Positions 1 through 54,667 are shown, numbered from the stretch's first letter. The stretch: DNA of 64,000 nucleotides from Eubacteriales bacterium (GCA_045540515.1 JAZQHJ010000173.1:6347-70346); one strand, 5' to 3'. Notes: generated from the sequence alone by a model not told the origin. Numbers and translations are program-made.

Positions 1-577
1 AGTTTGTAGCTAAATACATAACCACGCTTGTTCCTGTATTTTTCATAAACACACAGAAGAAGCACATAATTGTGCAAAGCGTTACATATACAAGAAGCTC
101 GAAAAGAATTGAAATTAGCAAATATCCAAGCTCGGATGCCGAGAAGGCAACATAAGAATACTCAAAAAGGATAAGTGAAATTCCAAAGGTTAAAAGTGCA
201 TATGAGAGCATAATGGAGCACATTACCACAATGCTAGTTATAAGCAGAGATAAAAAGATTGACACTCTGCTATGTCCTGCAATAATTTTGTTTCTTATTG
301 TGCCGTAGCTAAAATCCTTTGAAAGAGCAATTATAATTAGAACAGGAAGAATTAAGCCAAGGTCACCACCTGGTAAAAAGGCTTGGAAAAGCATACTTTT
401 TGCAGTTGGCATAGCTCCCATCATTGTAAGGAGCTCCTCATCAGCCCCCATAAATGCGAAAATTCCCTTGTAAAGAAGAGGACTTATAATTGCAAATGCT
501 CCTGCAATAATACAGGAAATCATAAAAAGCTTATCCTTGAAAACTCGGAGTAAATCTGATTTTAAAAGCCTAGTCAT
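1..577 (-). CDS. ABC-2 type transporter permease (partial; C-terminus lies beyond window start)
   Basis: Absent from the ORF track because it runs off the window. My minus-strand translation from ATG 577 reads MTRLLKSDLLRVFKDKLFMISCIIAGAFAIISPLLYKG... and stays hydrophobic. The ATG overlaps the stop of the upstream ATPase gene (ATGACTAG), indicating translational coupling. Confidence 0.6.
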   Translation of the reverse strand, partial: MTRLLKSDLLRVFKDKLFMISCIIAGAFAIISPLLYKGIFAFMGADEELLTMMGAMPTAKSMLFQAFLPGGDLGLILPVLIIIALSKDFSYGTIRNKIIAGHSRVSIFLSLLITSIVVMCSIMLSYALLTFGISLILFEYSYVAFSASELGYLLISILFELLVYVTLCTIMCFFCVFMKNTGTSVVMYLATN

Positions 578-1493
578 TTTGTCCACCCCCTATTGTTCTT
601 AAATAGTAGTCCTCAATGCTTGACTTTGTGGTATTGATTGCAGTAATATTAACTCCTGCATTAACAAGCCTTGGAACAATATAGTTAAGGTCAACATCGC
701 CATAAACCTTAGCGCCATTTACAACTGGCTCAATGTCGTCCGCCTCAAAGCATTCAGCAAGAGCCATAACAAGAGCACCACGATTGTCGCTTTCAAAAAG
801 AGTAAAGTGCCTACATTCGCTTTGTAATTGCTCCGAGGTAATTTCCTTTATAATTCTGCCCTTTGATATAATGCCGTAATTAGTTGCAACAAGAGAAAGC
901 TCTGTAAGAATATGGGATGAAATAATAAAGGTAATGCCCCTTTCCTTGTTGAGCTTTAAAATGAGCTCACGAATTTCGACAATTCCCGCAGGGTCAAGTC
1001 CGTTCATAGGCTCATCAAGAATAAGCAATTCAACGTCGCCAATAAGAGCCATAGCAATGCCAAGCCTTTGACGCATACCGAGGGAGAAATTACCCGCCTT
1101 CTTTGTGTCATTATATAGATATGAAAGACCAACAAGGTCAAGTGCCCTTGCAATTTTGCTCTCATCATTTATTCCAAGAATACTGCATTGCATTTTTAAG
1201 TTCTCGTAGGCACTCATATTAAGATAGATTGACGGAGCCTCAACAATTGCTCCGATTTTGGACCTTGCCTTTAAAATGTCGGGGGACGTGTGCGAAATTC
1301 CAAAAAGCTCAAAGCTACCCTCGTCTTGAAAAATAAGGCCAGTGATAACTCTTATAATGGTTGTTTTTCCACTTCCGTTTTCACCAACAAAGCCGTATAT
1401 ATCGCCCCTTGCAACATTCATAGATACGCCATTTAATGCCTTGTGTGCCTTGAATTTTTTGCAAAGACCGTTGGTTTTTACAATGTATTCCAT
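570..1493 (-). CDS. ABC transporter ATP-binding protein (ABC-2/bacitracin-lantibiotic exporter type)
   Basis: Walker A GENGSGKTT, signature FSLGMRQR and Walker B LLILDEP are present, followed by a C-terminal accessory domain. Confidence 0.9.
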   Translation of the reverse strand: MEYIVKTNGLCKKFKAHKALNGVSMNVARGDIYGFVGENGSGKTTIIRVITGLIFQDEGSFELFGISHTSPDILKARSKIGAIVEAPSIYLNMSAYENLKMQCSILGINDESKIARALDLVGLSYLYNDTKKAGNFSLGMRQRLGIAMALIGDVELLILDEPMNGLDPAGIVEIRELILKLNKERGITFIISSHILTELSLVATNYGIISKGRIIKEITSEQLQSECRHFTLFESDNRGALVMALAECFEADDIEPVVNGAKVYGDVDLNYIVPRLVNAGVNITAINTTKSSIEDYYLRTIGGGQND

Positions 1494-1638
1494 AAGTAAC
1501 TCCCTTTCTTTTATTATTATAAAAATATAATAGCATACAAAAAAAGAAAAAACAACATATATATTATGAAATTTTCTTGAAATAAAGGAAAAGATATGCT
1601 ATACTTTTATCTAGATAATTTTAACCTTGGAGATAAAA

Positions 1639-2232
1639 ATGAAAAGCAAAACACAATTTATAGAGCAGGATGAGGTTTTGGAAAGTGAGCTTTATCTTAG
1701 CGAAACATATGTTTGCAAGACACAAAAAAGACTATATGTATCAAAGCACACCAAGCGAAGAAAATCCGAAAAGATTGTAAACCTAAATACAGTACAAAGC
1801 GTTAGCATTGAGGAGGGCAGAGAGAAAAGAAGCTCTGGAACTCTTATAACGGGCTTACTCTTTGCAGCAACATCTGCATTCTTTGCATTTAAGGAAAGCT
1901 TAAAGCCTGTATTTTTGTCACTCTTGTTTATAGGAATAGCTCTTACCATTATAGGTATTATTCTTAAATTGCCAAGATATTATTCAAAGCTAATCATATC
2001 TAGCTATGGTCATCCTATTGAGCTCAGCTTTGAAAAGGTTACAGGCTCACAGGAGGAGCAATTAAAGAAAATGGTTTATTCCACCCTTATTTATACCACT
2101 AAGAGGGAAGAATCCGAGCCTACTTATGATGCCTCATATGAGGAAAATTTTACACAAATTCCAGTAATTGAGCCAGTAGCACAGCCACAGGAGCAAGAGC
2201 AGGAGCAAACCACAGAGGGAGCAATAATATGA
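1639..2232 (+). CDS. hypothetical membrane protein with acidic/Q-rich C-terminal tail
   Basis: ATG at 1639 follows the RBS GGAGA (the track's TTG at 1627 is less likely). Two hydrophobic helices are visible (LITGLLFAATSAFFAF and VFLSLLFIGIALTIIGIIL). The tail reads PQEQEQEQ. Confidence 0.5.
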   Translation: MKSKTQFIEQDEVLESELYLSETYVCKTQKRLYVSKHTKRRKSEKIVNLNTVQSVSIEEGREKRSSGTLITGLLFAATSAFFAFKESLKPVFLSLLFIGIALTIIGIILKLPRYYSKLIISSYGHPIELSFEKVTGSQEEQLKKMVYSTLIYTTKREESEPTYDASYEENFTQIPVIEPVAQPQEQEQEQTTEGAII

Positions 2233-2238
2233 TAAAGA

Positions 2239-2262
2239 AGGGGCGATGATATCGCTCCTTTT
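2239..2262 (+). terminator. rho-independent terminator
   Basis: A 9-bp stem AGGGGCGAT/ATCGCTCCT (one G-U pair) with a 3-nt loop is followed by a T-run. Confidence 0.6.
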
Positions 2263-2266
2263 ATTG

Positions 2267-2295
2267 TTGACAAGGGCAAGAATTTTTGGTATAAT
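2267..2295 (+). promoter_or_regulatory. SigA-type promoter, TTGACA-N17-TATAAT
   Basis: TTGACA at 2267-2272, an exact 17-nt spacer and TATAAT at 2290-2295. The promoter lies 35 nt upstream of the ATG of paralog 1. Confidence 0.75.
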
Positions 2296-2329
2296 TATTA
2301 TAGCAAAACATTTTAAGGAGATTTTAAAC

Positions 2330-2935
2330 ATGGCATCTATCGACAAGAATGCACTTATCACCGCTGCTCAACAGGCGTATGACGAGTGCGAAAAGTTCAT
2401 CGTAGGAACAGCAGAGGTTCTTGCAAGAAATGCGGATACAAAGGACGCAGAATTACTTCCAAAAGTTTTAATGGAAACATTTGACATCATTCTTCAAGCT
2501 TGCTTGCTCAATTCAGCAGTTAGCGATGGTCAGCTAGAGGAAGAGGAAATTGAGTTTATCAGAAAGGTTACAAAGCACGCAGATCTTCTTGAAAGCGAGG
2601 TATATGGCTTCCAAATCAAGGGCAAAAGGTTCACTTGGGAGGACTACGCAAGGCTTACAACCGAGGAGCAACAGCAAGTAGGTCTTGAAATCACAGCAGT
2701 TCTTAAAGAGGCTGTTACAGCATTCGTTAAGCTATTTGCTACTGTTGACAAGGTGCTTACAGAGGTTGACTTCCTTGAGCTTCTTCTTGAAAGAGCAATA
2801 TTCATTTTCCTTGCCCTTGCAGGAGTTGACGGCGATGACTATGAGTCAGAAATCGTTAAGGCAGAGACCGCTTGGGCTGGCGCAACATTCAAGGTTCTTC
2901 TTATGGACACTTGGAGAGAGGTTACAGGCGAATAA
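2330..2935 (+). CDS. TerB-like two-motif helical protein, tandem paralog 1 of 4
   Basis: ATG at 2330 follows AAGGAG. Motifs are LLNSAVSDGQLEEEEIEFI and LALAGVDGDDYESEIVKAE (DG-x5-E twice, as in TerB/DjlA-N type domains). The protein ends WREVTGE. The family assignment is motif-based only. Confidence 0.45.
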   Translation: MASIDKNALITAAQQAYDECEKFIVGTAEVLARNADTKDAELLPKVLMETFDIILQACLLNSAVSDGQLEEEEIEFIRKVTKHADLLESEVYGFQIKGKRFTWEDYARLTTEEQQQVGLEITAVLKEAVTAFVKLFATVDKVLTEVDFLELLLERAIFIFLALAGVDGDDYESEIVKAETAWAGATFKVLLMDTWREVTGE

Positions 2936-2950
2936 TTTTTGCTTACATAA

Positions 2951-2976
2951 AGGAGTCGGCATTGCCGACTCTTTTT
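2951..2976 (+). terminator. rho-independent terminator
   Basis: Stem GGAGTCGGC/GCCGACTCT with loop ATT, followed by TTTTT. Confidence 0.75.
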
Positions 2977-2979
2977 ATA

Positions 2980-3008
2980 TTGACATATTTTTTATTATTT
3001 GATATAAT
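2980..3008 (+). promoter_or_regulatory. SigA-type promoter, TTGACA-N17-TATAAT
   Basis: TTGACA at 2980-2985 and TATAAT at 3003-3008. The downstream leader (TATAATTATGGTATAAAATCATTTTAAGGAGAT) closely resembles the leader of paralog 1. Confidence 0.75.
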
Positions 3009-3042
3009 TATGGTATAAAATCATTTTAAGGAGATACTAAAA

Positions 3043-3645
3043 ATGGCATACTCAAAGGAACAGCTAATTCAAATAGCCAAGGTAAAATATGAGGAGTGTG
3101 AGCAGCTTATAACAATGGTTGCAGATGCACTAAAAAAGAACGTGGATGCTGATTTTGAATCAACCACAGCAATGATTTGCTTTGATATTATTATGCAATC
3201 CTGCTTGCTTAATGGTGCGGTTCATGACGGTCAGCTAGAAAGAACAGAAATAGAGCTTATCAAGAGCATTACAAAATATGCAGACTTACTACCATTTGTA
3301 AATGCAGAAATGGTTAAGGAGGACCCACAGTGGCCAAGCATCGGTTGGAATGATATTGCAACCCTTGAATCAGAGGCACAGCAATCAATTGCACTCATTT
3401 CAGCAGCAGTTGTTGTTGACTATGCAGATATGTTTGTAAAGATTTTTGCAACAGTTGATAAGATTTTGACGGACACTGACCTGCTTGGACTTATCAACGA
3501 AAGAGTATATGCGCTATTTGTTGCACTTGCAGCCGTTGACGGAGACGACATAAAGACCGATATTGCAAAAAAGGAAACGGTGCGTTCTGTAATTATTTAT
3601 AATACACTTGTTGCTGATAAGTGGAAGGAAATCACAGGCGAATAA
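3043..3645 (+). CDS. TerB-like two-motif helical protein, tandem paralog 2 of 4
   Basis: Motifs LLNGAVHDGQLERTEIELI and LAAVDGDDIKTDIAKKE. The protein ends WKEITGE. By eye it is roughly 40 percent identical to paralog 1. Confidence 0.45.
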   Translation: MAYSKEQLIQIAKVKYEECEQLITMVADALKKNVDADFESTTAMICFDIIMQSCLLNGAVHDGQLERTEIELIKSITKYADLLPFVNAEMVKEDPQWPSIGWNDIATLESEAQQSIALISAAVVVDYADMFVKIFATVDKILTDTDLLGLINERVYALFVALAAVDGDDIKTDIAKKETVRSVIIYNTLVADKWKEITGE

Positions 3646-3678
3646 TGCTTTAAAAAGCGAGTTAAAAGGAGCTTGATT

Positions 3679-4284
3679 ATGTCAATATATTCAAGGGAAA
3701 CTCTTGAAAGGGTAGCAAACGAAAGATACGCAGAGTGCGAGGCAATAATTATTGAAATGTCAGACATTGTAAAAACAGTAAGACCTGACTTTTCAACCGA
3801 TATTGCTCTTGGTCAATACGACCTTATTTTACAAGCATGCTTGCTTAATGCTGCCGTAAGCGATGGAGAATTTTTACCAGAGGAAAAGAGCTTTATAATT
3901 GAAATTGCCAAGCACGCAGATATTGTACCACTTTTGAACAATGCATTAAAATCGCAAAGAAAAGAGCCTATTGACTGGAATACAATTGATGACCTTGATA
4001 AGGACTCTATGAAAAATCTTGCAATGGTGGCAGGAGTTGTTGTTAAGAGCTACGCAAGGGAGTTTGTTGAAATCTTTGCAGTGGTTGACAAGGTTGTTGA
4101 GGAAAAGAGCTATTTTGATTTAATTTACAAGGCAACGGGACTCATTTTAGTTTGTGTAATGGGCATAGACGGCGATGATTTAAAGGGAGAAAATGCACTT
4201 TCTGAGGCAACGGCGGGACTAAAAATGTTTAATACCCTCGTAAAAAACAGGTGGGAAGAAATTTTAAATGAAAAGAAAAAATAA
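3679..4284 (+). CDS. TerB-like two-motif helical protein, tandem paralog 3 of 4
   Basis: ATG at 3679 follows AAAGGAG. Motifs LLNAAVSDGEFLPEEKSFI and VMGIDGDDLKGENALSE. It has no promoter of its own, so it is probably co-transcribed with paralog 2. Confidence 0.45.
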   Translation: MSIYSRETLERVANERYAECEAIIIEMSDIVKTVRPDFSTDIALGQYDLILQACLLNAAVSDGEFLPEEKSFIIEIAKHADIVPLLNNALKSQRKEPIDWNTIDDLDKDSMKNLAMVAGVVVKSYAREFVEIFAVVDKVVEEKSYFDLIYKATGLILVCVMGIDGDDLKGENALSEATAGLKMFNTLVKNRWEEILNEKKK

Positions 4285-4285
4285 A

Positions 4286-4309
4286 AGAACGGCTTAACCG
4301 TTCTTTTTT
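4286..4309 (+). terminator. rho-independent terminator
   Basis: Stem AGAACGG/CCGTTCT with loop CTTAA, followed by TTTTTT. Confidence 0.7.
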
Positions 4310-4320
4310 ACTCAAATTCG

Positions 4321-4350
4321 TTGACAAGCAAAGGGAGCTGGTGCTATACT
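4321..4350 (+). promoter_or_regulatory. SigA-type promoter with TGnTATACT extended -10
   Basis: TTGACA at 4321-4326 and TGCTATACT at 4342-4350, with an 18-nt spacer. Confidence 0.6.
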
Positions 4351-4387
4351 GAATTTGTTAGTATATTTTAATATAAAGGAGAAAATT

Positions 4388-4993
4388 ATGGAATATTCTG
4401 CAATGGACCATTTGACAAATACAGGCAAGGCATATTATGAGTTAAAGGCTCTTGTAATGGATATGGTAAAGGAAATAGGGGACAAAAATCCAAGCTTTAC
4501 TTATCCTGTTGCAATGGGAGAGCTGGACATTGTTTTGCAGACAGTGCTATTTTATTCTGCGATTGAGGATGACAAAATCGTTAAGGCTGAAAAGCTCATT
4601 ATAAAGGAGCTAACAAGCTATGAGGACCTTTTAAGCATAATCAATCAGGAGCAGCTCGACCTTGACCCGAATTGGCAGGAGCTTGATTGGACTATGGTTG
4701 CATCAATGACCAAGGATGAGCAAAAGGAAATTGCATCACTTGCACTTGAAATTGCATCAAGCTATGCAAAGGAGCTTGTAACAGCTCTTGCTAGGGCAGA
4801 TGAGGAAAACAAAAGGGTTAATTATCTTGAAAAAATAAACAAGGCAGTAATTGAAATTATAATAGCCTTTTGTGGAATAGACGGTGACAATGTTGAAAGC
4901 ATAAATGCGGGAAGCGAGTCATACGTTGGACTTGTAATTTATAATGAGCTTGTGAATAAAAGGTGGCTTGAAATTACAGGTGAGGAACAATAA
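4388..4993 (+). CDS. TerB-like two-motif helical protein, tandem paralog 4 of 4
   Basis: ATG at 4388 follows AAGGAGA. Motifs FYSAIEDDKIVKAEKLII (DG degraded to DD) and FCGIDGDNVESINAGSE. The protein ends WLEITGEEQ. Confidence 0.4.
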   Translation: MEYSAMDHLTNTGKAYYELKALVMDMVKEIGDKNPSFTYPVAMGELDIVLQTVLFYSAIEDDKIVKAEKLIIKELTSYEDLLSIINQEQLDLDPNWQELDWTMVASMTKDEQKEIASLALEIASSYAKELVTALARADEENKRVNYLEKINKAVIEIIIAFCGIDGDNVESINAGSESYVGLVIYNELVNKRWLEITGEEQ

Positions 4994-5007
4994 GGGGAAC
5001 AGCGAAA

Positions 5008-5174
5008 ATGGAAGAAAAGCACTACCAAGTGTCTAAAATTGAGGGTGAATATGCCTATATTACCAACCTCGAAACAGGGGAAGAGGTATTTATCGCAATG
5101 GCTCTTTTGCCCGAGGGCATAGACATTGGCACTAAGCTGAAATTTGAAATGTTTTCGTATGAAATAGAGGAATA
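5008..5174 (+). CDS. small DUF3006-like protein (55 aa)
   Basis: Absent from the ORF track because it is under 60 aa. My translation is MEEKHYQVSKIEGEYAYITNLETGEEVFIAMALLPEGIDIGTKLKFEMFSYEIEE. The IEG...A......F...LLPEG..G pattern matches my memory of DUF3006. Its stop lies 3 nt before the next gene. Confidence 0.4.
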
Positions 5175-5177
5175 AAA

Positions 5178-6041
5178 ATGAAGAAAATAGCAGTATTTAT
5201 GCTCTTTGGACAGTCCAACGCAACAGGACACGCAATGCCAATGGAGGAAAAGGACATAATCAAGGAGCCACTTAAAAACGTTTTTGGACTTAACAGAGAG
5301 CCAAACCAAAGCTTTGATACCGAAAAGCTAAAATTCACGGGATATACAAGCTACGGAATGAACCTTGCAGAAAATCAGGACAACACCTATTCGGTTGCAA
5401 ACTGTCTTGCAAAAAGATGGCAGAGTGATATTGATAACGGTGCAGAGCTACCCGACCTTTATATAATTCATATTTCAATTGGCGCACAGGGAATTTATGG
5501 AATGTGGAATCCCGACAGACCGAAAAAGCTAATCCCGGGCAGACTTGGAGATTGCGATATTTCAATGTATCCGCTTGCAATTCACGTTTTAACTCTGTTT
5601 AAGAAATTTATGGACGAAAACGAAATGGAGCCTGACTACGTCGGTGTTCATTGGAGAGGTGGAGAGCAAGAATTTTGGCAGGGAATACCTCAGCTACAAG
5701 ATAGACTAAAACCACTTTACGTAAGACTTATTAACGGCATAAGAGGCGCTGTTTGCGCAGAGGCGCCGTTCGTATTTCACCGTATGCCATTTGTGCAGGT
5801 TACAAAAAATGCCGACCCAACAGGAAAGTGCTTTGACTCAATGAACTACATAAATGGAGTATTTGAGGAGCTTTCAAACGAAATTCCAAGCGTTAGCGTT
5901 TTTGACGTTAGAAGATGCCCGTTCTATGATGAAAATGCATGGGACTTTGGTATTTTCTGTGGGGATTTAATCCACTATCTTGGCAAAACGAACGACTGGG
6001 TTGCACAGGATATTTTAGAGGAATACAAGAGCAGAAAATAA
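5178..6041 (+). CDS. sialate O-acetylesterase-like carbohydrate esterase (SASA/DUF303 family)
   Basis: The N-terminal GQSNATGHA block matches the GQSNMxG motif of this esterase family. Confidence 0.6.
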   Translation: MKKIAVFMLFGQSNATGHAMPMEEKDIIKEPLKNVFGLNREPNQSFDTEKLKFTGYTSYGMNLAENQDNTYSVANCLAKRWQSDIDNGAELPDLYIIHISIGAQGIYGMWNPDRPKKLIPGRLGDCDISMYPLAIHVLTLFKKFMDENEMEPDYVGVHWRGGEQEFWQGIPQLQDRLKPLYVRLINGIRGAVCAEAPFVFHRMPFVQVTKNADPTGKCFDSMNYINGVFEELSNEIPSVSVFDVRRCPFYDENAWDFGIFCGDLIHYLGKTNDWVAQDILEEYKSRK

Positions 6042-6045
6042 GAAA

Positions 6046-6070
6046 AGCGGGCACTACGTGTCCGCTTTTT
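6046..6070 (+). terminator. rho-independent terminator
   Basis: Stem AGCGGGCAC/GTGTCCGCT with loop TAC, followed by TTTTT. Confidence 0.7.
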
Positions 6071-6170
6071 ATGTTTTTAATCTGTGCCGACGTTTCGGTT
6101 TACGGCATGATTAAGTGCTTTACAGATTATTCTGCGCTTTCAACGGTTTTGCTTGAGCTTTCGCACTTAT

Positions 6171-6205
6171 AAAAAGAAAAAGCCGACCACGTGGTCGGCT
6201 TTTTG
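6171..6205. terminator. bidirectional terminator (perfect 20-nt palindrome)
   Basis: AGCCGACCACGTGGTCGGCT at 6181-6200 is flanked by an A-run upstream and a T-run downstream. It sits directly 3' of the minus-strand gene ending at 6206. Confidence 0.75.
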
Positions 6206-7357
6206 TTATTCAATGATTTGGTTTACAAAGTTTTTAATCTTGTTGTGTGTGCAATCGTGCTGTGGGTTGAGCATTTGCTGACCATAAACAATTGCAATAT
6301 TTTTTTCTGGGTCAACCGAGCAAAGGAAGCCTGCTGCGCCGTCCCAACCAAATTCGCCAATGGAGCAAAGGTTTCCACCTCTACCAACGCCGATTTTAGT
6401 TCTTACGCCAAAGCCATAGCCATATTCTGCATTACTCATCCAGCTACTAAAATCCTCATACATTTGAGAGCCAACAGGAAGCGTATTCGTACGCATAAGA
6501 TTTACACTTGCCTTAGAAAGAATTCTTGCGCCATTTAAGCCAAGGCCATAATTTGCAAGAGCTGTTGCAAATTTAACGTAGTCATCAACCGTAGTAACAA
6601 CGCCAGCTCCACCAGAATCGTATTCTTCGCCAAATATGTAATCGTTCTTCTTTTCAACTCTTTCTGGTAGGTTAGTAGAGTAGTTAAAGCGATATTGAGC
6701 ACACATATTGTCAAGCTGGTCCTTTGTTGCGTGATAGGTTGAGCTAGTCATTCCGAGAGGGTCAAAGATAACTCTTTTTACATAGTCTGCAAAGCGTTCC
6801 CCTGTTGCGACCTCAACAAGACGGGCAAGCACGTCGTGGCAAAGGCTGTACTGCCACCTTGTATTAGGCTCAAAGTCAAGACCACGGGAGGCAATAGCCC
6901 TTACAATTTCTGCCGTTGGAGCCTTTGGATTTTTAGCAACAGCCTCCTTAATTTCAGGCATGGAGCAATCATAGTTGAGCCCTGCCGTCATATTAAACAG
7001 GTCGTGTATTCTTATTTCACGAGTGGCATCCTTATATTCAACCGTGCCGTCTGGCTTGATTGATTTGATTTTGACATTTCTAAATTCTCCAAGATACCAC
7101 CAAAGTGGGTGAGTCATTAAGAACTTTCCTTCCTCAAATGCGTGAAGTGCAGCTGCACAGCAAATAGGCTTTGAGGCAGAATATATATAGTAGTGCTCAG
7201 TTCCCTTCATTTTAATGCCGTTTTCCTTGTCGGAATAGCCTGTTTGGTAAGAAAAAACCTCTTTTCCCTTATGCCAAACACGTAGGTCAAGTCCTGGCAC
7301 CTTTTCTCTTACTAAAATTGTTTCAAGATATTTTTCAAGTGAAGCAAAGGTGTACAT
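6206..7357 (-). CDS. serine hydrolase, beta-lactamase (class C/esterase EstB-like) family
   Basis: SxxK motif in YSASKPICC. Length and overall layout are typical of the family. Confidence 0.75.
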   Translation of the reverse strand: MYTFASLEKYLETILVREKVPGLDLRVWHKGKEVFSYQTGYSDKENGIKMKGTEHYYIYSASKPICCAAALHAFEEGKFLMTHPLWWYLGEFRNVKIKSIKPDGTVEYKDATREIRIHDLFNMTAGLNYDCSMPEIKEAVAKNPKAPTAEIVRAIASRGLDFEPNTRWQYSLCHDVLARLVEVATGERFADYVKRVIFDPLGMTSSTYHATKDQLDNMCAQYRFNYSTNLPERVEKKNDYIFGEEYDSGGAGVVTTVDDYVKFATALANYGLGLNGARILSKASVNLMRTNTLPVGSQMYEDFSSWMSNAEYGYGFGVRTKIGVGRGGNLCSIGEFGWDGAAGFLCSVDPEKNIAIVYGQQMLNPQHDCTHNKIKNFVNQIIE

Positions 7358-7492
7358 TGTAAAAGCTCCTTATCGGTTTTTGTATTTTAGACAAATAAAG
7401 TATAGCATATGAAAAAATTAAAATCAACCTTTTGTTGACTATTTTGGACAAGTATGATAAAATAACACTATCTTGGAACAATAGAGGACAAT

Positions 7493-8326
7493 ATGGATTT
7501 TATAGAAAACAAATCATTTGATGAGGAAAGAGCATTATACGGCTCACAAAATTTACAAATAGTAAATTGCTCCTTTGACGGAGAGGCTGACGGAGAAAGT
7601 GCCTTAAAGGAAAGCTCAAACATTCTTGTGCAAAATTGTTATTTCAATTTAAGATACCCATTTTGGCACATTGATTTTTTGTCCGTTGTTGATAGTGAGC
7701 TTACAGAAAATGCAAGAGCTCCATTTTGGTACACAAATGAGCTTGAAATTGATAATTGTGTCATAAAATCGCCAAAATCCCTAAGGGAGTGTACGAAAAT
7801 AAGAATAAGCGACTCACAAATCAGCTCTGATGAGCTGTGTTGGAGCTGTGAAAGCATTAAGGTTAAGAATAGCACCATAAGCGGTGAATATTTTATGCTA
7901 AGGTCAAGGGATATAGAATTTTACGAAAATACCTTTTTCGGTAAGTATTCCTTCCAGTACATAGAGAATGCAACAATTGAAAATTGCAAGCTGAATACTA
8001 AGGACGCACTTTGGCACGCAAAAAACGTAATCGTGCGAAATTCCGTCATCAAGGGCGAGTATCTTGGCTGGTATAGTGAGAATTTAACATTTGATAATTG
8101 CGTAATTATCGGCACTCAGCCGCTTTGCTACTGCAAGGGGCTTACACTTATAAATTGTGAAATGCGTGAGGCGGACCTTGCATTTGAAAAGAGTGAGGTT
8201 GAGGCAAGCCTAACTTGTCCGATTATAAGCATAAAAAATCCAAAAAGTGGACATATCAGAGTTCCACTTTATGATGAGCTTATAATGACGGAGCAATCAA
8301 GTGTTGTAATTGATACAGAGGTTTAA
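7493..8326 (+). CDS. DUF3737-like beta-helix repeat protein
   Basis: The N-terminus reads FDEERALYGSQNLQIVNCSFDGEADGESALKES, and repeated N/C-rich beta-helix-like units follow. The family name is from memory. Confidence 0.45.
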   Translation: MDFIENKSFDEERALYGSQNLQIVNCSFDGEADGESALKESSNILVQNCYFNLRYPFWHIDFLSVVDSELTENARAPFWYTNELEIDNCVIKSPKSLRECTKIRISDSQISSDELCWSCESIKVKNSTISGEYFMLRSRDIEFYENTFFGKYSFQYIENATIENCKLNTKDALWHAKNVIVRNSVIKGEYLGWYSENLTFDNCVIIGTQPLCYCKGLTLINCEMREADLAFEKSEVEASLTCPIISIKNPKSGHIRVPLYDELIMTEQSSVVIDTEV

Positions 8327-8439: not shown

Positions 8440-11400
8440 ATGAAAAGAGTTTTAGAGTGGCTAAAATCAAAGACGTGGATATATGTCTATGGCGCACTTG
8501 CGTGTATTTGCATACTTTTTGTAAATATTGCACAGGGGCTTGGCTTGAACACGTATATCACGTGGACAATTGTGTCACTTGCAGTGCTTTTAATAACCGT
8601 GGTCTCGGCTATACTTACTGCAAAAAGGCAGAAAAAGCTAGCTATTAAGGAGAAAAGAACAAGAGCACAAAACAAAAAGGACGAAAAATCCAAGAAGGAG
8701 GATAACGATAGCATTGCAGAAAAAATGCTTGAGGGCTTAAAAAATCAGCTTTCAAAATCCTTTGCAAGTCCTTTCTATATTTTGCTTGGTGGCTTTGCAA
8801 TTTCACTTTGCTTCTACCTTGGACCTATTATCTTTTTAAGTAAGGATTATGCTGACGTTGATAGCTTTTCCAAGGCACTTGCAACGCTACATCATACAAT
8901 AAAGCTATTTGTAGTTGACTCTGACTTTTCCATGATTATATCAAACGAGATAGTAATTGAGTCAAGCGGACTTAAAACTCTATTTACAATAGTTGGCGGA
9001 TTTTATTTTATTGCTGCGCCAACCTTCACCCTTACAACCCTTTTGTCTTTTGTAAAGGACTTATTCTCGATGATAAAAATCAGACTCCTTTTCAAAAGAC
9101 CTGTTTACATATTTTCCGAGCTTAACGATATGTCAATTGCAATCGCTAAGGACATTGTTAAAAAGGATATTAAGGGCAAAAAGCTACTTATTTTCACAGA
9201 CGTATATAACACTGAGGACGAGGCAAAGAGAGAGCTTGTTGTAACAGCGCAAAGGCTTGGTGCAATTTGTCTTAGCAGAGATATTCTTGAGCTTAAAACA
9301 AGGTGGTTTAAGTTCAACAAGATTAAGAAATATTACTGCATCGGTACCGACCAGGACGAAAATATGAAGCAGGCGCTAAAAATAATTGACTCCTACGGCT
9401 ACCAGTATTCAAAGCTTAGCGAAAGAAAAGAGGATGCTCTTGTAAATAGCCTAATTTGTGAAATAGAGGGCGTATCAAGGGGCGAATACGATAAGGACCG
9501 TATAGGCGCATGTCAACAGGAGCTTGAAATCCTTTATCGCTTTAAGGAAAAGGAAACTCTTGGTCAAAAGAAGGCGTACCAAAGGAAGGAAATGGCTACT
9601 CTTACTCCAACACAAAGGGAGCTAAAGGACAAGAAAAGAGAGCTTTCCTTTAAGACAATAAGAATTCTTTTGAACGCACAAAGAGTAAAAAGCCTAGACG
9701 CAAGTGAAATGGCAAGACAAAACGAGGCAGAGCTTAATGGTATAATAGCTCAAAGGGAGCAAGACCTTAAAGCACTTGAAAACGAGCACGAGGAAACATT
9801 AAAGAACCTTAAGCTTGAAAGAATGTATGAGCTTGATAGCAGCAGGGCTCAAGAAATAACTAATAAAATTGAACAAGAAATCATAAGCTATGAGAGCAAA
9901 AAGGAAAAAATTGCAAATGATGCCGAGCAAAAAGGTGCACTTGCAGAGCAAAAGCACAAGATTGAAGCGGTTCTTGATGAGCTAATATTTGAGCTTGAAA
10001 GAAATAATGAGCTAAAAGAAAGAATTGCGCCACTTGACAAGAAAAACCAAGAGCTTGACGAGCTTTTAAGAAAAGCAAATAACGAGCCAGAGCCAAGCAA
10101 GGAAAATACAAGCTTCGAGCCAAGGGAGCTCACCGAGCAGGAAAAAGCGGAACAGCAAAAGGAGACGGAGCTCAAAGAAAGGGCTAGTCGTGGCAAGGAC
10201 GCCCTTCTTGAATATGTATATAGCGAGGATAATCTCAAAGCAGAGGAGCTTGATGAGGCTAAGGCACTTCTTAATAAGACAAGGAGTGAAAATAAGGCTC
10301 TTATTAAGAGATACAACAAGGGTAAATCTGCAATAAGGAAAAAGCAAAGAGACCTTGATGTTGCAAAGCAAAGACAAGCAGAGCTTGAAAATGAAAAAAC
10401 CGACAAGGGTAAGCAGGCATTACTTGCAAAATACAAGCAACAGGACGTTGAATACGAGCTTGAACAGGTAAAGAATGAGCTTGAAATTGTAAATAGTGAG
10501 CTTAAAAAGCAAATAAACGAGCTAACAAGCAACGCACAGGGCGAAAGAGCCGAGCAAATTAAGAAAATTCTTTCAAGTCAGGCAAGTGAGGAAAAGCTCT
10601 TTGAAAGAAGCGAAAGGAAAACAAACGGACTTGCTTGTGGCAAGAAGGAGCTTAATGACAGACCAGAGATTTACGTATATGCAGCAAATGCAGAGAGTGA
10701 AACACTTCTTGATAATGTAAGCAAGGAGCTTTTACACGTACGTAGAATCAATGAAAACAGAAACCTTGTTTTTGAAACAATGAATAGCAATTCAATATTT
10801 GACGATGTTGATAATGCAACAGGAAGCGATATAAATGGCGATAAGCAAATGAATGTTGCAATAATCGGTCTTGGTGGCTATGGTATGGAGCTTTTAAAAA
10901 CTCTATCCTGGCTAGGACAGGCAAAGGGCTATTACCTAAATGCATTTGTCTTTGACGGAGAAAATGGTACTGAAAAGCTAAAAGCCGTTGCTCCTGATAT
11001 GATAAAATACAACTATCTTGACATTTACAAGGAAGGCAACGAAAAGAAAAACGAGGTAGGAGAGGGAGACTTCATAACGGGCCTTGAGGACACCGAGGCA
11101 AGCGAAAGAACACGTGCCGATATTCCAAAGGACCCAGTGGAAACAAGCTATTCAATTACCTTCTACAACAATGTAGATGTAAAAACCACAAAATTCCTTG
11201 AAATGATTGAAAAAATAGATGCAAGACGTCCGCTAACAAGCATATATGTAACACTAGGTAATGATAGCCTAAACGTTCAAACAGCAATGAATATAAGACG
11301 TACGCTTGCAAGAATTACAAGCAATCAAAAAGCGCCAAAAATTTATGCCGTTGTATTTAATACAATAAAAACAGACGTGCTTCAAAAGGGTGCGGGTAAT

Positions 11401-11862
11401 GACTACAATATTACCTACATAGGAAACATTGAAAAGGCATTCTCACAGCAAACAATTGAGCAACAGGAAATTGAAAGAACTGGCTTTATTTACCACAGTC
11501 GTTGGTCGGATGTATCAAATCCATACGAGGCAAGACAGGAGCAGGGAAAATATGAAAAGACAGAGTATTTCAGAAGGTCCTCAATGGCACAGGCATTGTT
11601 CTACAAGCTTACATATGATAAGGTTTGGTATGACAACATTGAGGAGCTATCCAAATATGAGCACAATCGTTGGAGTGCTTTTATGAGGGCTGACGGCTTT
11701 GTTGCTTGTGATGATTCTAGCAAAAAGGACACTGCTGTTAAGAAAACGCACCATAACCTTGTGCCATTTAATGAGCTAAGTGATAGCGATAAGGATAAGG
11801 ACTTCGCTTTCTATACAGCTGATAAACGAGCAAGAGTTAAGGACAACAAAACAGGGAGATAA
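8440..11862 (+). CDS. multi-pass membrane protein with degenerate and intact Rossmann (KTN/TrkA-N-like) domains, ~400-aa coiled-coil insert and C-terminal RyR-like domain
   Basis: Four N-terminal hydrophobic helices. A K/E-rich heptad-like segment spans about aa 320-740. GxGxxG in VAIIGLGGYG is followed by an FVFD acidic residue. The C-terminus YEHNRWSAFMRADGF...KKTHHNLVPFNELSDSDKDKD matches the RyR-domain pattern (HE.W...GW...hP.LvPy.eL...K..D). Confidence 0.55.
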   Translation: MKRVLEWLKSKTWIYVYGALACICILFVNIAQGLGLNTYITWTIVSLAVLLITVVSAILTAKRQKKLAIKEKRTRAQNKKDEKSKKEDNDSIAEKMLEGLKNQLSKSFASPFYILLGGFAISLCFYLGPIIFLSKDYADVDSFSKALATLHHTIKLFVVDSDFSMIISNEIVIESSGLKTLFTIVGGFYFIAAPTFTLTTLLSFVKDLFSMIKIRLLFKRPVYIFSELNDMSIAIAKDIVKKDIKGKKLLIFTDVYNTEDEAKRELVVTAQRLGAICLSRDILELKTRWFKFNKIKKYYCIGTDQDENMKQALKIIDSYGYQYSKLSERKEDALVNSLICEIEGVSRGEYDKDRIGACQQELEILYRFKEKETLGQKKAYQRKEMATLTPTQRELKDKKRELSFKTIRILLNAQRVKSLDASEMARQNEAELNGIIAQREQDLKALENEHEETLKNLKLERMYELDSSRAQEITNKIEQEIISYESKKEKIANDAEQKGALAEQKHKIEAVLDELIFELERNNELKERIAPLDKKNQELDELLRKANNEPEPSKENTSFEPRELTEQEKAEQQKETELKERASRGKDALLEYVYSEDNLKAEELDEAKALLNKTRSENKALIKRYNKGKSAIRKKQRDLDVAKQRQAELENEKTDKGKQALLAKYKQQDVEYELEQVKNELEIVNSELKKQINELTSNAQGERAEQIKKILSSQASEEKLFERSERKTNGLACGKKELNDRPEIYVYAANAESETLLDNVSKELLHVRRINENRNLVFETMNSNSIFDDVDNATGSDINGDKQMNVAIIGLGGYGMELLKTLSWLGQAKGYYLNAFVFDGENGTEKLKAVAPDMIKYNYLDIYKEGNEKKNEVGEGDFITGLEDTEASERTRADIPKDPVETSYSITFYNNVDVKTTKFLEMIEKIDARRPLTSIYVTLGNDSLNVQTAMNIRRTLARITSNQKAPKIYAVVFNTIKTDVLQKGAGNDYNITYIGNIEKAFSQQTIEQQEIERTGFIYHSRWSDVSNPYEARQEQGKYEKTEYFRRSSMAQALFYKLTYDKVWYDNIEELSKYEHNRWSAFMRADGFVACDDSSKKDTAVKKTHHNLVPFNELSDSDKDKDFAFYTADKRARVKDNKTGR

Positions 11863-11864
11863 CA

Positions 11865-13946
11865 ATGAAAAAAATATGCATAATTTCGCTTAATGAGTGG
11901 TGGGTTTTTGAAAATAAGAACGCAACCATACTGCCAGTGGAAGCAATAAAGGGAGCATTAAAGGCAGAGCTTGGAATTACAAGCTATGAATATAGTAGCT
12001 TTACGGAGCTTGTGATTGAAATTGAGGAAAATCAGCTTTCACAGGTAAAAGGCGTCGTGGAAAAATGCTTAAAGGACAGCTATGCCTGTGATACCGATAA
12101 GGTAGTAAAAATATATTTACATAAGGAAGCTCCAAAATCGAGCTTTGAGGATAATACAACAACTAGCAAGGAAGGTAATTCAGATATGAGTACAGATTTA
12201 GAAAAAGCATTAAGTAGCACCTTTGGAACAGGTGCAAAGACAAGCACACCAAAGGAGGCACCAGCTCCACAGCCAGAGGAGGAAAAGGTTGACCCTGTAA
12301 AGGCAGTTCTTGAAGAAATTGATAATTTAGTTGGCGCAAGAGAGTTCAAGGCGCTTTGCCACGAGCTTGCAAGCGTAGCACCACAAATTCGTAAGAGCAA
12401 TATGCTTGATTCATTTATACACAATAGTTACGTTTTTGCAATCAATGACGGTGCAGGATGTACAACATTCTTGAACCTTTTTGCAAGGCTACTTTGTGCT
12501 CTTGAGCTAAGAAGCGAGGGCAGAGGCGGTGTAAATGTATTTGAGCTTGGCTATATGACTGCCGACACTGCAAAATTTTTCCAGGAATATGAGGAATACA
12601 AGGCAAAGCTAAAAAGCGGAAAGCCAGTTATTTGCATTGATATTAGCGATATGATGACAAAGGTAAACACCTCTGCATTTAAGCACTTTGTAACAGCTCT
12701 TGAAAAGGACGGACTTGCAACAAAGACTACATTTATATTCAAGGTTCCTTTTGTTAAAAAGGAGGTTCTTGACGAGGTTACATATGCTCTTAACGACGTT
12801 ATAAATGTAAAGGCTGTTTGCTTCCCACCGCTTAGCACAAAGGAAATTTGTGAATACGCCTCAAAGGAAACAGAACGCTACGGCTTTAAGTTTGATGATG
12901 AGGCTTGGCCAAGCTTTCAGGAAAGAATTTGCGAGGAAAAGGCTGACGGTAAATTCTACGACCTTAAAACAGTCAATAAGATTGTAAGAGAGCTTATTTA
13001 TAACAAGCATCTTGATAATGCAATAAATAACAAGGACGATGTAAAAATCAACGCATCTGACACAGAAAAGCTTTGCGTATATAAGCCACTTGACGACGCA
13101 AGCGTTGATGAGCTGTTTGATGCTCTTGTTTGTGGTGAGACCTTTAAAAAGAAGATTAATGAAATTGTATCACAGGTGCTCGTTGCAAGAAAGACCTCTG
13201 GCGCAAAGGCTCCTTGTATTCATATGCGCTTTGTTGGTAACCCAGGTACTGGAAAAACAACTCTTGCAAGAATTGTTGGTAAGGTATTAAAGGAAAAGGG
13301 AATTTTAAGAATAGGCGCATTCCACGAATGCTCGGGCCGTGACCTTGTTGGTAGATTTGTTGGTGAAACTGCACCAAAAACAGCAAGCATTTGTAGAGAT
13401 GCATACGGCTCTGTATTGTTTATTGATGAGGCGTACTCACTATACAGAGGAAGAAGCGACTCAAACGACTTTGGTAGAGAGGCAATTGATACCCTTATTG
13501 CAGAAATGGAAAACCACAGAGATGATCTTGTTGTAATTATGGCGGGCTACACTGATGAAATGAATACAATGATTGATGGAAACGCAGGTCTTGCATCACG
13601 TATTCCATATACAATTGAGTTCCCTAACTTCACAAGAGAGCAATTAAATACAATCTTTGTATCAATGCTTAAATCCACCGAGATTAAATATGAGAAGGAC
13701 GTTTTGAAGGCTGCAAAGGAATACTTTGATTCAATTCCAGATGCAACAATCAATTCAAAGAAGTTCAGCAATGGTAGATTTGTTCGTAACCTTTACGAAA
13801 GAACCTTTGCAAAGGCTTGTACAAGAACTCAAATCAATGGTGAGGACGTAATTGTAATAAAGAAAGAGGACTTTATTTCAGCACAGTCAGATGCAGAGTT
13901 CCTAATTACAGAAAAGAAGCAAAGCTCAGCAAGAATCGGCTTCTAA
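11865..13946 (+). CDS. tandem AAA+ ATPase of the SpoVK/CbbX clade (N-terminal module degenerate, C-terminal module intact)
   Basis: The intact module has Walker A GNPGTGKTT, Walker B VLFIDEAYSL and VVIMAGY. The upstream module has a decayed P-loop (NDGAGCTTF) and VICIDISD. The start codon lies 2 nt after the stop of the upstream gene. Confidence 0.8.
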   Translation: MKKICIISLNEWWVFENKNATILPVEAIKGALKAELGITSYEYSSFTELVIEIEENQLSQVKGVVEKCLKDSYACDTDKVVKIYLHKEAPKSSFEDNTTTSKEGNSDMSTDLEKALSSTFGTGAKTSTPKEAPAPQPEEEKVDPVKAVLEEIDNLVGAREFKALCHELASVAPQIRKSNMLDSFIHNSYVFAINDGAGCTTFLNLFARLLCALELRSEGRGGVNVFELGYMTADTAKFFQEYEEYKAKLKSGKPVICIDISDMMTKVNTSAFKHFVTALEKDGLATKTTFIFKVPFVKKEVLDEVTYALNDVINVKAVCFPPLSTKEICEYASKETERYGFKFDDEAWPSFQERICEEKADGKFYDLKTVNKIVRELIYNKHLDNAINNKDDVKINASDTEKLCVYKPLDDASVDELFDALVCGETFKKKINEIVSQVLVARKTSGAKAPCIHMRFVGNPGTGKTTLARIVGKVLKEKGILRIGAFHECSGRDLVGRFVGETAPKTASICRDAYGSVLFIDEAYSLYRGRSDSNDFGREAIDTLIAEMENHRDDLVVIMAGYTDEMNTMIDGNAGLASRIPYTIEFPNFTREQLNTIFVSMLKSTEIKYEKDVLKAAKEYFDSIPDATINSKKFSNGRFVRNLYERTFAKACTRTQINGEDVIVIKKEDFISAQSDAEFLITEKKQSSARIGF

Positions 13947-13982
13947 TTCCTTGCAAATCCTTTATCAACGAAAGGAATAAAA

Positions 13983-16307
13983 ATGTCAGCTTTAAATGTA
14001 ACTATTACGCTTTTCTGTCTGGTGGCATTTTTCTTAGAGGTAATCGGATTTTTCTTTTACTATATATTAAAAAAACGACCTGACAGAATAAGCTTTATAA
14101 AGAATTATAAAAAAGGTAAATGCGCAATAATTTATCTTATTGCAATTCCTATGTTTTGGATTGGAATTATGTACACCAAGACAAGCAAGGGGATTCCATT
14201 TACCCCTGTAAATGAGGTGTTTACGTCAATTCATAAGGTTATCAACCTTGTGGTTTTAAAGTACGAGGTTTCAGAAATTGAAGCGCTTATGAATGACTTT
14301 ACCCTTTATGCTGTTTGTGTATATGTTTGCTTTGGACTTGTTCTTATCAATGCAGGACTATTTATGGTGTCTTTTGTTGGTCAGTACCTTTGGTCAGTTA
14401 AGGGCAAGCTTCAAAGACGACTTTTATACAAGGAAAACCTTGTGATTTTTGGCTACAATAATGAGTGCGTTGAGATTTATAATAGCGATAAATCAAGAGC
14501 AAAAATCATTGTTGCCCCTCTTGAAAAGGAAAAGCAGGAGGAGCTATACATTGCAAATATTCATTATGCCGAGGCAAAGACCTACGAGTCGTTTGTTGAT
14601 CGCTTCCTTGCTATTGCAAAAAACGAAAAGAAAAGACATATTGCAATAATAAACACAGGCAGTGATGAGACAAATATCGCTGTTTGCAGAGCCTTTGTAA
14701 ATGCTCTTTCAGGATATGAGGGAGATAAGGAAAAGCTATTTTTACGTGTAAAGATTTACGTCTTTGGAGACCCAAAATATCAAACCCTTTATGATGATAT
14801 TGTATCTGACGGCTATGGCTGTATCAGCTATGTAAACAAGTACCAAAAAATTGCAATGGATTTTATAAACAGCTATCCGTTTGCACTCTTTATGGACGAA
14901 AAACAGCTTGACTACAAGACCTCGCTTGTAAAAAAGGATGTAAATATCAATGCTATAATGATTGGCTTTGGAAAAACAGCACAGCAAATTTTTGCAACCT
15001 CGGTTGCTAATAACCAGTTTTTAAGATATGCTCTTAAAGAGGAGAATGGTGAGCTAGTTGAGGATAAGGACAGGGAGCCAGAGCTAAAAAGAGTCAATTA
15101 TCATATCTTTGACAAAACCGAGGCAAAGAACAATAAAAATCTCAACCACAGCTATTATCGCTACAAGAACGAGTGCCTGCTTAACTGCCTTGCAAAGGAC
15201 AGTGATGAATTTGAGCACGGCTTAAACGAGAGGGCAAGGGAGTATTTGCCACTTCCAAAGGTTCCTGCAAGGGAGCACTTTAATAAGCTTGATATAAACG
15301 ATAGAGATTTTTATAACAATATTTATAAAATAATAACCGCAGGCAAAAACGATAAGAACTTTATTATAATTGCCTTCGGTAAGGACCTTGAGAATATTGA
15401 TATGGCTCAAAAGCTTATCGAAAAGCGCAGAGAATGGGGGCTTTCCGACCTGATTATTTTTGTAAGGTCAAGGGATTTCCACAAGTGCGACACTCTTGTA
15501 AATGACGAGAACTGCTACTTCTTTGGATATGAAAGCGAGGTAGTTTACGACATTGAAAGAATTCTTGAGGACGACATTTACAAAATGGCAAGGATGCGTA
15601 ACGAGATTTACGACATTGAATACTATATTTCAAACGAAAATCCAAGCCCAACACAGGATGAAATAAGTCAGGTTAAGGCTAGCGCTGAAATTAAATGGCA
15701 CAAAAAGCTTTCTCCTATGCTACGTGAAAGCAGTCTTTATGCCTGCCTTAGCATAAGGTCAAAGCTCAATCTTATAGGGCTTGACTATGTAAGATGCGAC
15801 CAAAAGCCAAATCAAAGGGCGCTTACCTATGATGAATATATAAGCGTATATTCACACGACGGCGACGTTCCAATCGTAAGAGGGGACCTTATGGCAGGGG
15901 ACAAGGCTGTTTGCAAATATGACCTTGATTTCAAGCCACACTCTATGCGTACATATCTTGGAATCCACGAGCATCAAAGGTGGAATTCGTTTATGGTAAG
16001 CAAGGGAATAATTCCTTCAACCCTTGACCAAATTTACAACGAAAGACTACCAAACGGCAAGTATTCAAATGGTAAGAGATACGATGCAAGACGTCACGGC
16101 AATCTAACAACCTTTGGTGGACTTGTAGGATTTAGACGCTTGCTTGCATACAGGGCAAGTGGCAAGGAATTTACAGATTATGAAAGCATTATGAGCACAC
16201 CACAGGCAGGTGAGGCTGAATATGATGTAATCAAGTACGACTATCAATTGCTTGATGACGCATACTGGCTACTTACCAAAAATGGCTTTAAAATAATCAA
16301 AAAATAA
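13983..16307 (+). CDS. multi-pass membrane protein with Rossmann-like domains and C-terminal RyR-like domain (short paralog of 8440-11862)
   Basis: N-terminal TM helices. Rossmann-like strands LVIFGYNNEC and AIMIGFGKTAQQI, then HIFD. The C-terminus reads HEHQRWNSFMVSKG...RRHGNLTTFGGL. The domain order matches the 1140-aa protein minus its coiled coil. Confidence 0.5.
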   Translation: MSALNVTITLFCLVAFFLEVIGFFFYYILKKRPDRISFIKNYKKGKCAIIYLIAIPMFWIGIMYTKTSKGIPFTPVNEVFTSIHKVINLVVLKYEVSEIEALMNDFTLYAVCVYVCFGLVLINAGLFMVSFVGQYLWSVKGKLQRRLLYKENLVIFGYNNECVEIYNSDKSRAKIIVAPLEKEKQEELYIANIHYAEAKTYESFVDRFLAIAKNEKKRHIAIINTGSDETNIAVCRAFVNALSGYEGDKEKLFLRVKIYVFGDPKYQTLYDDIVSDGYGCISYVNKYQKIAMDFINSYPFALFMDEKQLDYKTSLVKKDVNINAIMIGFGKTAQQIFATSVANNQFLRYALKEENGELVEDKDREPELKRVNYHIFDKTEAKNNKNLNHSYYRYKNECLLNCLAKDSDEFEHGLNERAREYLPLPKVPAREHFNKLDINDRDFYNNIYKIITAGKNDKNFIIIAFGKDLENIDMAQKLIEKRREWGLSDLIIFVRSRDFHKCDTLVNDENCYFFGYESEVVYDIERILEDDIYKMARMRNEIYDIEYYISNENPSPTQDEISQVKASAEIKWHKKLSPMLRESSLYACLSIRSKLNLIGLDYVRCDQKPNQRALTYDEYISVYSHDGDVPIVRGDLMAGDKAVCKYDLDFKPHSMRTYLGIHEHQRWNSFMVSKGIIPSTLDQIYNERLPNGKYSNGKRYDARRHGNLTTFGGLVGFRRLLAYRASGKEFTDYESIMSTPQAGEAEYDVIKYDYQLLDDAYWLLTKNGFKIIKK

Positions 16308-54608: not shown

Positions 54609-54615
54609 AAGAAAG

Positions 54616-54645
54616 GTAAGTGGCAGAATAAGCTCTGCCACTTAC
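54616..54645 (+). other. perfect 12-bp stem hairpin between the giant gene and the ATPase gene (possible attenuator/stabiliser)
   Basis: GTAAGTGGCAGA ataagc TCTGCCACTTAC, followed by TAAAATT, which is only a weak T-tract. Confidence 0.5.
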
Positions 54646-54667
54646 TAAAATTGCAAGAGGGGAAAAT

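Follow-up and report, generated by a model that had tools for sequence, protein, structure and literature searches.

A conserved tandem array of acidic proteins with TerB-like motifs in a Eubacteriales genome

Four consecutive genes for small acidic proteins occupy positions 2267–4993 of a 64,000-nucleotide (nt) stretch of DNA from a Eubacteriales bacterium (GCA_045540515.1, JAZQHJ010000173.1:6347-70346), and raise the question of which protein family they belong to and what such a set of paralogs could do for the cell. We refer to the full 64-kb stretch as the window and count all array positions on it. An initial annotation, made from the sequence alone, had described four tandem paralogs with paired acidic DG-x5-E motifs like those of the tellurite-resistance protein TerB. 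Judged by sequence comparison, the proteins (P1–P4, for paralogs 1–4) form a rare, unannotated family, apparently a variant of the TerB-like proteins, carried here in an unusual and conserved tandem array. Our leading, though tentative, reading of their role is that P1–P4 are stand-alone TerB-type sensor or adaptor proteins that would bind a cation or another ligand.

Structure, expression signals and evolution of the array

The array genes all lie on the + strand, and their starts were fixed from the positions of ribosome-binding sites (RBS) and promoters and from the N-termini of orthologues. P1 (2330–2935) encodes 201 amino acids (aa) with an isoelectric point (pI) of 4.4, P2 (3043–3645) 200 aa with a pI of 4.4, P3 (3679–4284), which has its own RBS (AAAGGAG), 201 aa with a pI of 4.65, and P4 (4388–4993) 201 aa with a pI of 4.3. 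A 229-aa reading of P1 (open reading frame (ORF) 2246–2935) was rejected, since it would place a consensus promoter within the coding sequence and the orthologues begin with MASI(D/E)K. Identity to P1 was 45% for P2, 30% for P3 and 25% for P4, the most diverged copy. With four intact ORFs on one strand, 25–45% identical, and between-copy tblastn E-values of 1e-14 to 1e-46, far past chance, the description of four tandem paralogs of about 200 aa held. No fifth copy was found by tblastn across the 64-kb window. The products were uniformly acidic (pI 4.3–4.65) and contained no hydrophobic or predicted transmembrane segment.

Residues invariant among the copies were Y16, D48, Q52, D62, E69, W102, D139, D166-G-D, W194 and E196 (P2 numbering). 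The first motif is D62-G-x5-E69, with DD in place of DG in P4, and the second is D166-G-x5-(E/D) in P1–P3, with the acid at +5 in P4. The common skeleton proposed by the initial annotation was therefore real overall but not uniform: besides its DD, P4 lacks the N-terminal ECE and has LARADE where the others have FATVDK, and P3 ends in ILNE rather than ITGE. The proposed insert of about 70 aa between the motifs had to be revised, as their spacing is 104 residues compared with 78 in Klebsiella-type TerB, an excess of about 26 aa. An AlphaFold2 model of P2 (pLDDT, predicted local distance difference test, of 93) consisted of nine helices, with each DG motif in the loop that joins a long helix to the one after it. 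A comparison of the two halves of the protein by hhalign also gave a weak alignment (P=0.0015, 68 columns) that superimposes the DG motifs. Each product is thus an all-helical protein of about 200 aa made of two helix-helix-DG-x5-(E/D)-helix units.

The promoters predicted for the array were recovered in full. P1 is preceded by a sigma-A promoter (TTGACA-17-TATAAT, 2267–2295, + strand) that is kept before the orthologue in the related genome L002, and P2 by a promoter of the same sequence and spacing (2980–3008, + strand); both match the consensus at 12/12 positions and have a TG-extended -10 box. P4 has its own TG-extended promoter (TTGACA-18-TATACT, 11/12, 4321–4350, + strand), kept in L002 and in another relative, L014. 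The best match before P3 reached only 8–9/12 and P3 begins 33 nt past the P2 stop; lacking a promoter of its own, P3 is therefore predicted to be co-transcribed with P2, as the initial annotation had it. Intrinsic terminators follow P1 (2953–2979, hairpin 2953–2971, GAGTCGGCAATGCCGACTC and then a T-run) and P3 (4283–4315, hairpin 4283–4307, also with a T-run), both on the + strand; the P1 hairpin came up on the - strand, with the T-run 3' of the hairpin on the + strand. The next clear terminator past P4 (6042–6070, + strand) lies beyond two further genes, of 55 and 287 aa, that follow P4 in close succession. These signals delimit three transcription units, P1, P2–P3 and P4-orf55-orf287, and P4 probably shares one transcript with the 55-aa and 287-aa genes.

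The -10-to-ATG distance is 34 nt for both P1 and P2, and their -10 boxes and leaders are 83% identical over 52 nt (2285–2336 and 2998–3049), which makes this the best-conserved DNA between the two units, above any coding stretch. Leaders more alike than the coding DNA fit a co-duplication of promoter and gene, as had been proposed, and the promoter and leader are kept in orthologous arrays as well. Orthologous copies in three related contigs are preceded by equivalent promoters, and we regard this conservation as the best available sign that the promoters would be functional. Scans of the window against Rfam and for tRNA genes gave no match, and the leaders thus show no sign of a riboswitch.

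The array varies in copy number among related genomes, with four copies in the window, four plus one in L002, six in L001 and four in L014. A neighbour-joining tree resolved six paralog classes (A, P1, C, B, P3 and P4, with the window copies P1–P4 in classes P1, B, P3 and P4), each with orthologues in at least two genomes and in conserved order, P4 always standing last. Since the classes are shared across genomes, the duplications are older than these species, with gains and losses following later, and on this phylogeny the locus is an ancient birth-and-death array in related metagenomic Firmicutes. Amino acid identity to the L002 orthologues was 95% for P1, 80% for P2, 60% for P3 and 75% for P4, with ratios of nonsynonymous to synonymous substitution (dN/dS) of 0.17, 0.08, 0.25 and 0.12, respectively, against 0.075–0.15 for the flanking genes. 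All four copies are under purifying selection and none is decaying, which agrees with the initial view of an old, maintained array; decay of some copies, which that annotation had named as a finding that would speak against it, was not seen.

The amino acid divergence of the array copies nevertheless exceeds that of most flanking genes, and synonymous divergence (dS) from L002 was uneven across 570–8326. It was lowest in the 287-aa gene (0.036) and P1 (0.13), about 0.8 in the ABC transporter ATPase gene and a beta-lactamase-fold gene, and 1.2–1.4 in the membrane-protein gene upstream of the array and in P2–P4. Such a mosaic suggests recombination breakpoints inside the locus. No hypervariable patch was found among the paralog classes, variation being spread along the whole protein.

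Relationship to TerB and breadth of the family

Searches with the wider family supported a link to TerB. The Pfam TerB family (PF05099) was matched at E<=0.1 by 51 of 146 family members and DUF533 by eight of the same 146, among which no further family recurred besides a few N-terminal zinc ribbons. Three of ten individually checked distant members (P0095, 31.3 bits; P0107, 25.4; P0076, 24.7) passed the TerB gathering score of 24.4 bits, and residues 6–76 of P0073 aligned to TerB profile positions 39–104. A hidden Markov model (HMM) built from TerB proper matched both halves in several family members, and in a profile search of the PDB the entry 2ou3 ranked second (E=0.43), the sole PDB lead from sequence and profile searches. 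Two helix-loop-helix units, each with a D-G-x5-E-type motif, are the hallmark of TerB and were present in the window paralogs. The placement of the motif in a loop that follows a long helix and leads into another is likewise the TerB arrangement.

Like TerB (PF05099; Klebsiella/E. coli TerB, 2JXU; the COG3793 protein, 2OU3), DUF533/YebE and the N-terminal domain of DjlA, the array proteins are all-helical and acidic. They share with TerB two copies of a unit of hydrophobic helix, (A/S)-x-x-D-G-x5-E and helix, and N-terminal zinc-ribbon fusions occur in some family members. They differ in length (200 aa as opposed to about 150 aa, 151 aa in TerB), in the wider spacing of the motifs, in the family-specific invariant residues Y16, D48, Q52, W102 and D139, and in their genes standing in tandem arrays of four to six paralogs with no ter operon.

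The family is rare and carries no annotation. A word-indexed search of 5.8 billion proteins returned nine relatives, none with a precomputed Pfam domain and with 'hypothetical protein' as the only source name; when 1.84 billion cluster representatives were searched exhaustively with an HMM, 338 matched at E<=1e-3, of which 202 reached E<=1e-10. Scans of the four proteins against Pfam, NCBIfam, PADLOC and PHROG gave nothing above threshold, and the best PADLOC v2 match (PDC-M49A, E=0.0035, 13.7 bits) was not meaningful. Named relatives were metagenome-assembled genomes (MAGs) of Clostridia and Erysipelotrichaceae, and singleton members stood in housekeeping contexts in L013, L019 and L021. Relatives were absent from two scans of the viral_contigs collection and from a scan of metagenome_contigs, and a scan of genome_contigs seeded with a close alignment gave no match; the null result in viral contigs means that there is no sign of a phage-borne family.

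Protease partners and the possible role of the array

In distant relatives, the domain is tied to a trypsin-like protease. A C-terminal Trypsin_2 domain was fused to it in four of the best 150 representatives (P0034, P0038, P0093 and P0151), and likewise in the protein of L018, an Erysipelotrichaceae MAG. A stand-alone Trypsin_2 gene (162–196 aa) followed the family gene by 17–116 nt in L007, L010–12, L017 and L024. The domain and protease modules span 3601–8628 in L007, 10001–11262 in L010, 3162–4462 in L017, 6001–7242 in L018 and 6001–7289 in L024. The pair of family gene and protease gene in L010 adjoins a serine recombinase. At the C-terminus of the split, non-fused forms, a low-complexity linker leads into a conserved tail, KKSLKDFYVKKN (SLKDFYVKKN), a motif present in 18 of 158 family sequences. 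All three tail-bearing proteins whose contigs were looked up (P0155, P0160 and P0030) had an adjacent protease, including one next to P0030 that had been predicted from the tail and was confirmed on look-up. Among PADLOC models, the protease domain resembled defence-system effectors (RT-Protease_XI, 7e-17; LmuA, 6e-13). The window proteins themselves lack the linker and the SLKDFY tail, and no protease gene adjoins or is fused to them in the window. In these relatives, the domain and a minimal intracellular Trypsin_2 protease form a module that recurs either as two genes or as a fusion, a candidate for an undescribed conflict or stress module.

The contexts of some modules recall the Ter stress network. 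In L007, a tight operon encodes the TerB-like protein, Trypsin_2, a kinase, a vWA protein and a PP2C phosphatase; and in L024, a TelA, XpaC and TPM gene cluster lies 2–4 kb off. Anantharaman, Iyer and Aravind reportedly described, in 2012, both the TerY-P triad layout and the TelA-type context of this network. The L007 locus resembles the TerY-P triad (vWA, PP2C and Ser/Thr kinase) in that genes for all three follow those of a family member and its protease in one operon, but this was seen at one locus only, and the window has nothing similar. In L018 (5395–8129), a gene for a regulator with HTH_3 and zinc-ribbon domains precedes the fusion gene and a putative heavy-metal exporter gene of the ArsP_2 type follows it, a single case that may be coincidence.

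If P1–P4 act as sensors or adaptors, the family would be a distant branch of the TerB-like superfamily in which the invariant D48, D62, E69, D139 and D166 make up a binding site for a divalent cation or small ligand, as has been suggested for TerB. The products would then be abundant modules positioned on the cytoplasmic side of the membrane, where they would probably work with a two-helix membrane protein encoded upstream. In distant relatives, the domain would regulate the intracellular trypsin-like protease, to which it would be docked by its C-terminal SLKDFY tail where it is not fused. The window lineage would be descended from, or sister to, this protease-controlling lineage; its clade may have lost both tail and protease, while the sensor diversified into paralog classes with different surfaces. 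The membrane protein in question (1627–2232, + strand; start TTG 1627 or ATG 1636) has about 200 aa, a basic N-terminal region, two central hydrophobic helices and an acidic Q/E-rich tail, and is always encoded directly upstream of the array. It had no Pfam match and no PDB match by sequence search. In L001 and L014, its gene and the first two of the array are contiguous or overlapping, which suggests translational coupling and a functional link between the membrane protein and the array.

Several results weigh against a TerB-type function. The window paralogs matched TerB and DUF533 at the first motif only weakly (E 0.016–0.2): the best TerB score was 12.4 bits (P1, E=0.2) compared with the cut-off of 24.4, and the best DUF533 score was 15.2 bits (P3), so that the Pfam check suggested by the initial annotation yielded weak matches below cut-off and nothing else. 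An hhalign comparison of the family with an alignment of TerB proper (16 sequences) covered 23 columns at 19% probability (P=0.0012), in which the TerB profile was a shallow one of limited sensitivity because no two of the retrieved homologues were less than 74% identical; against a single TerB sequence, the motif alone was matched. The similarity to TerB is essentially one helix-loop-helix motif of 23–26 residues, which could be convergent. Foldseek searches of the PDB recovered no TerB entry, either with the full model (best E 0.22, TM (template modelling) score 0.2) or with the N-terminal half (best E 3.4), TM scores staying <=0.4 in both searches, although the PDB holds at least one TerB-like entry (2ou3); as Foldseek is weak on small helical bundles, this null is not decisive. 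The full model also had no significant match in BFVD. No ter genes (terC, terD, terZ or telA) were found among the ORFs scanned at 570–20621, which reach about 15 kb from the array, and the proposed link to the membrane protein depends on synteny within one small clade. The initial claim of TerB-like motifs thus fared differently at different levels: at the level of the motif, the relationship to TerB is real, at the level of the superfamily it is probable, and the thresholds for membership of Pfam TerB are not reached by the window proteins.

These same results can be read as those of a novel helical family unrelated to TerB that arrived at its DG-x5-E loops by convergence, for example of abundant scaffold or structural proteins that form hetero-oligomers, or of chaperone-like proteins. 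Very strong promoters and several paralogs are what would be expected of abundant structural proteins, the singletons of L013 and L019 stand in housekeeping contexts, and the Foldseek nulls in the PDB and BFVD and the short profile alignment with TerB proper fit as well. We nevertheless judge this explanation unlikely: one third of the members independently match TerB or its relative DUF533 and, a few zinc ribbons aside, nothing else recurs; three members score above the curated cut-off; both halves bear the motif in the same helix-loop-helix setting; and neighbours from the Ter network occur at two independent loci (the kinase-vWA-PP2C triad and TelA).

The protease link opens a further explanation, in which the ancestral job of the family would have been to hold a trypsin-like protease inactive, in the manner of an antitoxin, and the array would be an orphan stock of inhibitor or immunity paralogs kept against incoming or chromosomally distant proteases. 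The placement of the family gene 5' of the protease gene in an operon, or as an N-terminal fusion, in many distant relatives would suit this, as would the likeness of the protease to defence effectors, the serine recombinase beside the L010 pair, the tandem diverged copies with strong, constitutive-looking promoters, the copy number that differs among genomes, and a dS at the array above that of its flanks, which suggests allele exchange. Against it, the serine-protease motif G[DN]SG[GSA]P was absent from all six frames of the 64-kb window, no toxin or secretion gene adjoined the array among the scanned neighbours (ABC transporter, membrane protein, 55-aa, 287-aa and beta-lactamase-fold genes), the window proteins are without the protease-associated linker and tail, and an Imm3 match was noise (E=0.019). 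Evolution at the locus also runs counter to it, with dN/dS of 0.08–0.25, even variation without a hypervariable patch, and a position in a conserved chromosomal neighbourhood, with the ATP synthase on one side and PFL on the other, rather than in an island. We therefore hold an inhibitor stock to be improbable.

The initial annotation had likewise noted a resemblance to immunity-protein arrays, and on this the evidence pointed both ways: relatives are tied to a trypsin-like protease, but no toxin gene adjoins the array and nothing indicates diversifying selection. Like the immunity arrays of polymorphic toxins, this one consists of tandem, diverged genes for small cytoplasmic proteins in variable copy number. 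It differs from them in its purifying selection, in having no toxin or secretion gene nearby, and in paralog classes that are old and cross-species and whose relatives are fused to a presumed partner enzyme.

A bolder variant, which we consider rather less probable again, would make the family the sensor or regulatory subunit of an undescribed conflict module of TerB-like protein and trypsin-like protease, either anti-phage or toxin-antitoxin-like. The window array would then be a diversified bank, fixed in the chromosome, of sensors or pseudo-inhibitors which, with the upstream membrane protein or a protease encoded elsewhere, surveys the membrane or intercepts foreign proteases. If true, this would be a new, multi-paralog immune layout. 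The anti-phage systems Shango (SngA), Bunzi (BnzA) and Dionysus (DinB) pair a TerB-like protein with a separate effector and have been proposed to act in membrane surveillance (bioRxiv 10.1101/2022.05.11.491447; PMC10250203; bioRxiv 10.1101/2025.09.30.679545). The present family is like them in that distant relatives pair the domain with a protease of the defence-effector type. It is unlike them in that the array proteins match no PADLOC model, there is no helicase, ATPase or pore-forming toxin partner, and no effector gene adjoins the array in the window. Because no PADLOC model matches, the comparison with their membrane surveillance would be one of functional analogy only.

A classical tellurite- or metal-resistance TerB within a ter operon, for which the shared motif is the sole support, is very hard to reconcile with the absence of terZ, terA, terC, terD and terE near the array among the ORFs scanned, with 200 aa instead of 151 and a motif spacing of 104 instead of 78, with scores under the Pfam cut-off, and with a layout of four to six copies that to our knowledge is not one in which terB occurs.

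A sensor or adaptor function of the TerB type would matter beyond this locus, since the TerB domain occurs not only in tellurite resistance but also in DjlA and in a number of validated anti-phage systems. A compact, confidently modelled family with two TerB-type acidic loops and a protease link would give a handle on TerB sensing and effector control. At least six paralog classes, long retained and with strong promoters, imply non-redundant roles. Defining the family would also improve the annotation of several hundred protein clusters, and of all the results the protease link lends itself best to follow-up.

Neighbouring genes and other features of the window

The surroundings of the array are conserved in gene order in L001, L002–L006 and L014–L016. 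The ATP synthase operon is followed by an ABC transporter on the opposite strand, the membrane protein of about 200 aa and the array, and the array in turn by the 55-aa gene, the 287-aa gene and an opposite-strand beta-lactamase-fold gene. A promoter-like site of the membrane-protein gene (TTGAAA-17-TATACT, TG-extended, 10/12; 1577–1605, + strand) has similar counterparts before the orthologues in L002, L001 and L014. The 55-aa gene (5008–5175, + strand) had a sub-threshold DUF3006 match and the 287-aa gene (5178–6041, + strand) no family match; the two stand in the same order in L001, L002 and L014. The 287-aa protein shares 99% identity with its L002 counterpart and matched nothing in Pfam or the PDB; it starts with MKKIAVFMLFGQSNATGH, a beginning that we take to recall the GQSN motif of SGNH esterases of the sialate O-acetylesterase type.

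Downstream of the array locus, a three-gene cluster (8440–16307, + strand) is kept in L001, L002 and L014. The first gene encodes a 1140-aa protein that has hydrophobic segments in its N-terminal part, a very long charged middle resembling a coiled coil and a sub-threshold RyR match at its C-terminus (PF02026, E=2.8e-4; 21.5 bits, cut-off 27.4); its length ranges from 685 to 1140 aa among genomes. The second gene encodes a 693-aa AAA+ ATPase (PF00004 and AAA_lid_6) with weak PADLOC IetA/TRIP13 matches, and the third a protein of 774 aa with no family match.

Farther along, a gene at 47814–57871 (+ strand) encodes a 2264-aa surface-type protein with 16 Flg_new repeats, an LRR_5 region and a weak C-terminal match to a Hint module, and is followed by a gene for a 1067-aa ATPase of the FtsK/SpoIIIE family. 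Genes for GH95, GH31 and GH92 glycoside hydrolases stand consecutively at 27039–33233 (+ strand), which fits a gut organism that degrades host or plant glycans. The GC content of 39%, taken together with several glycoside hydrolases in the window, likewise suggests a gut-type Firmicute.

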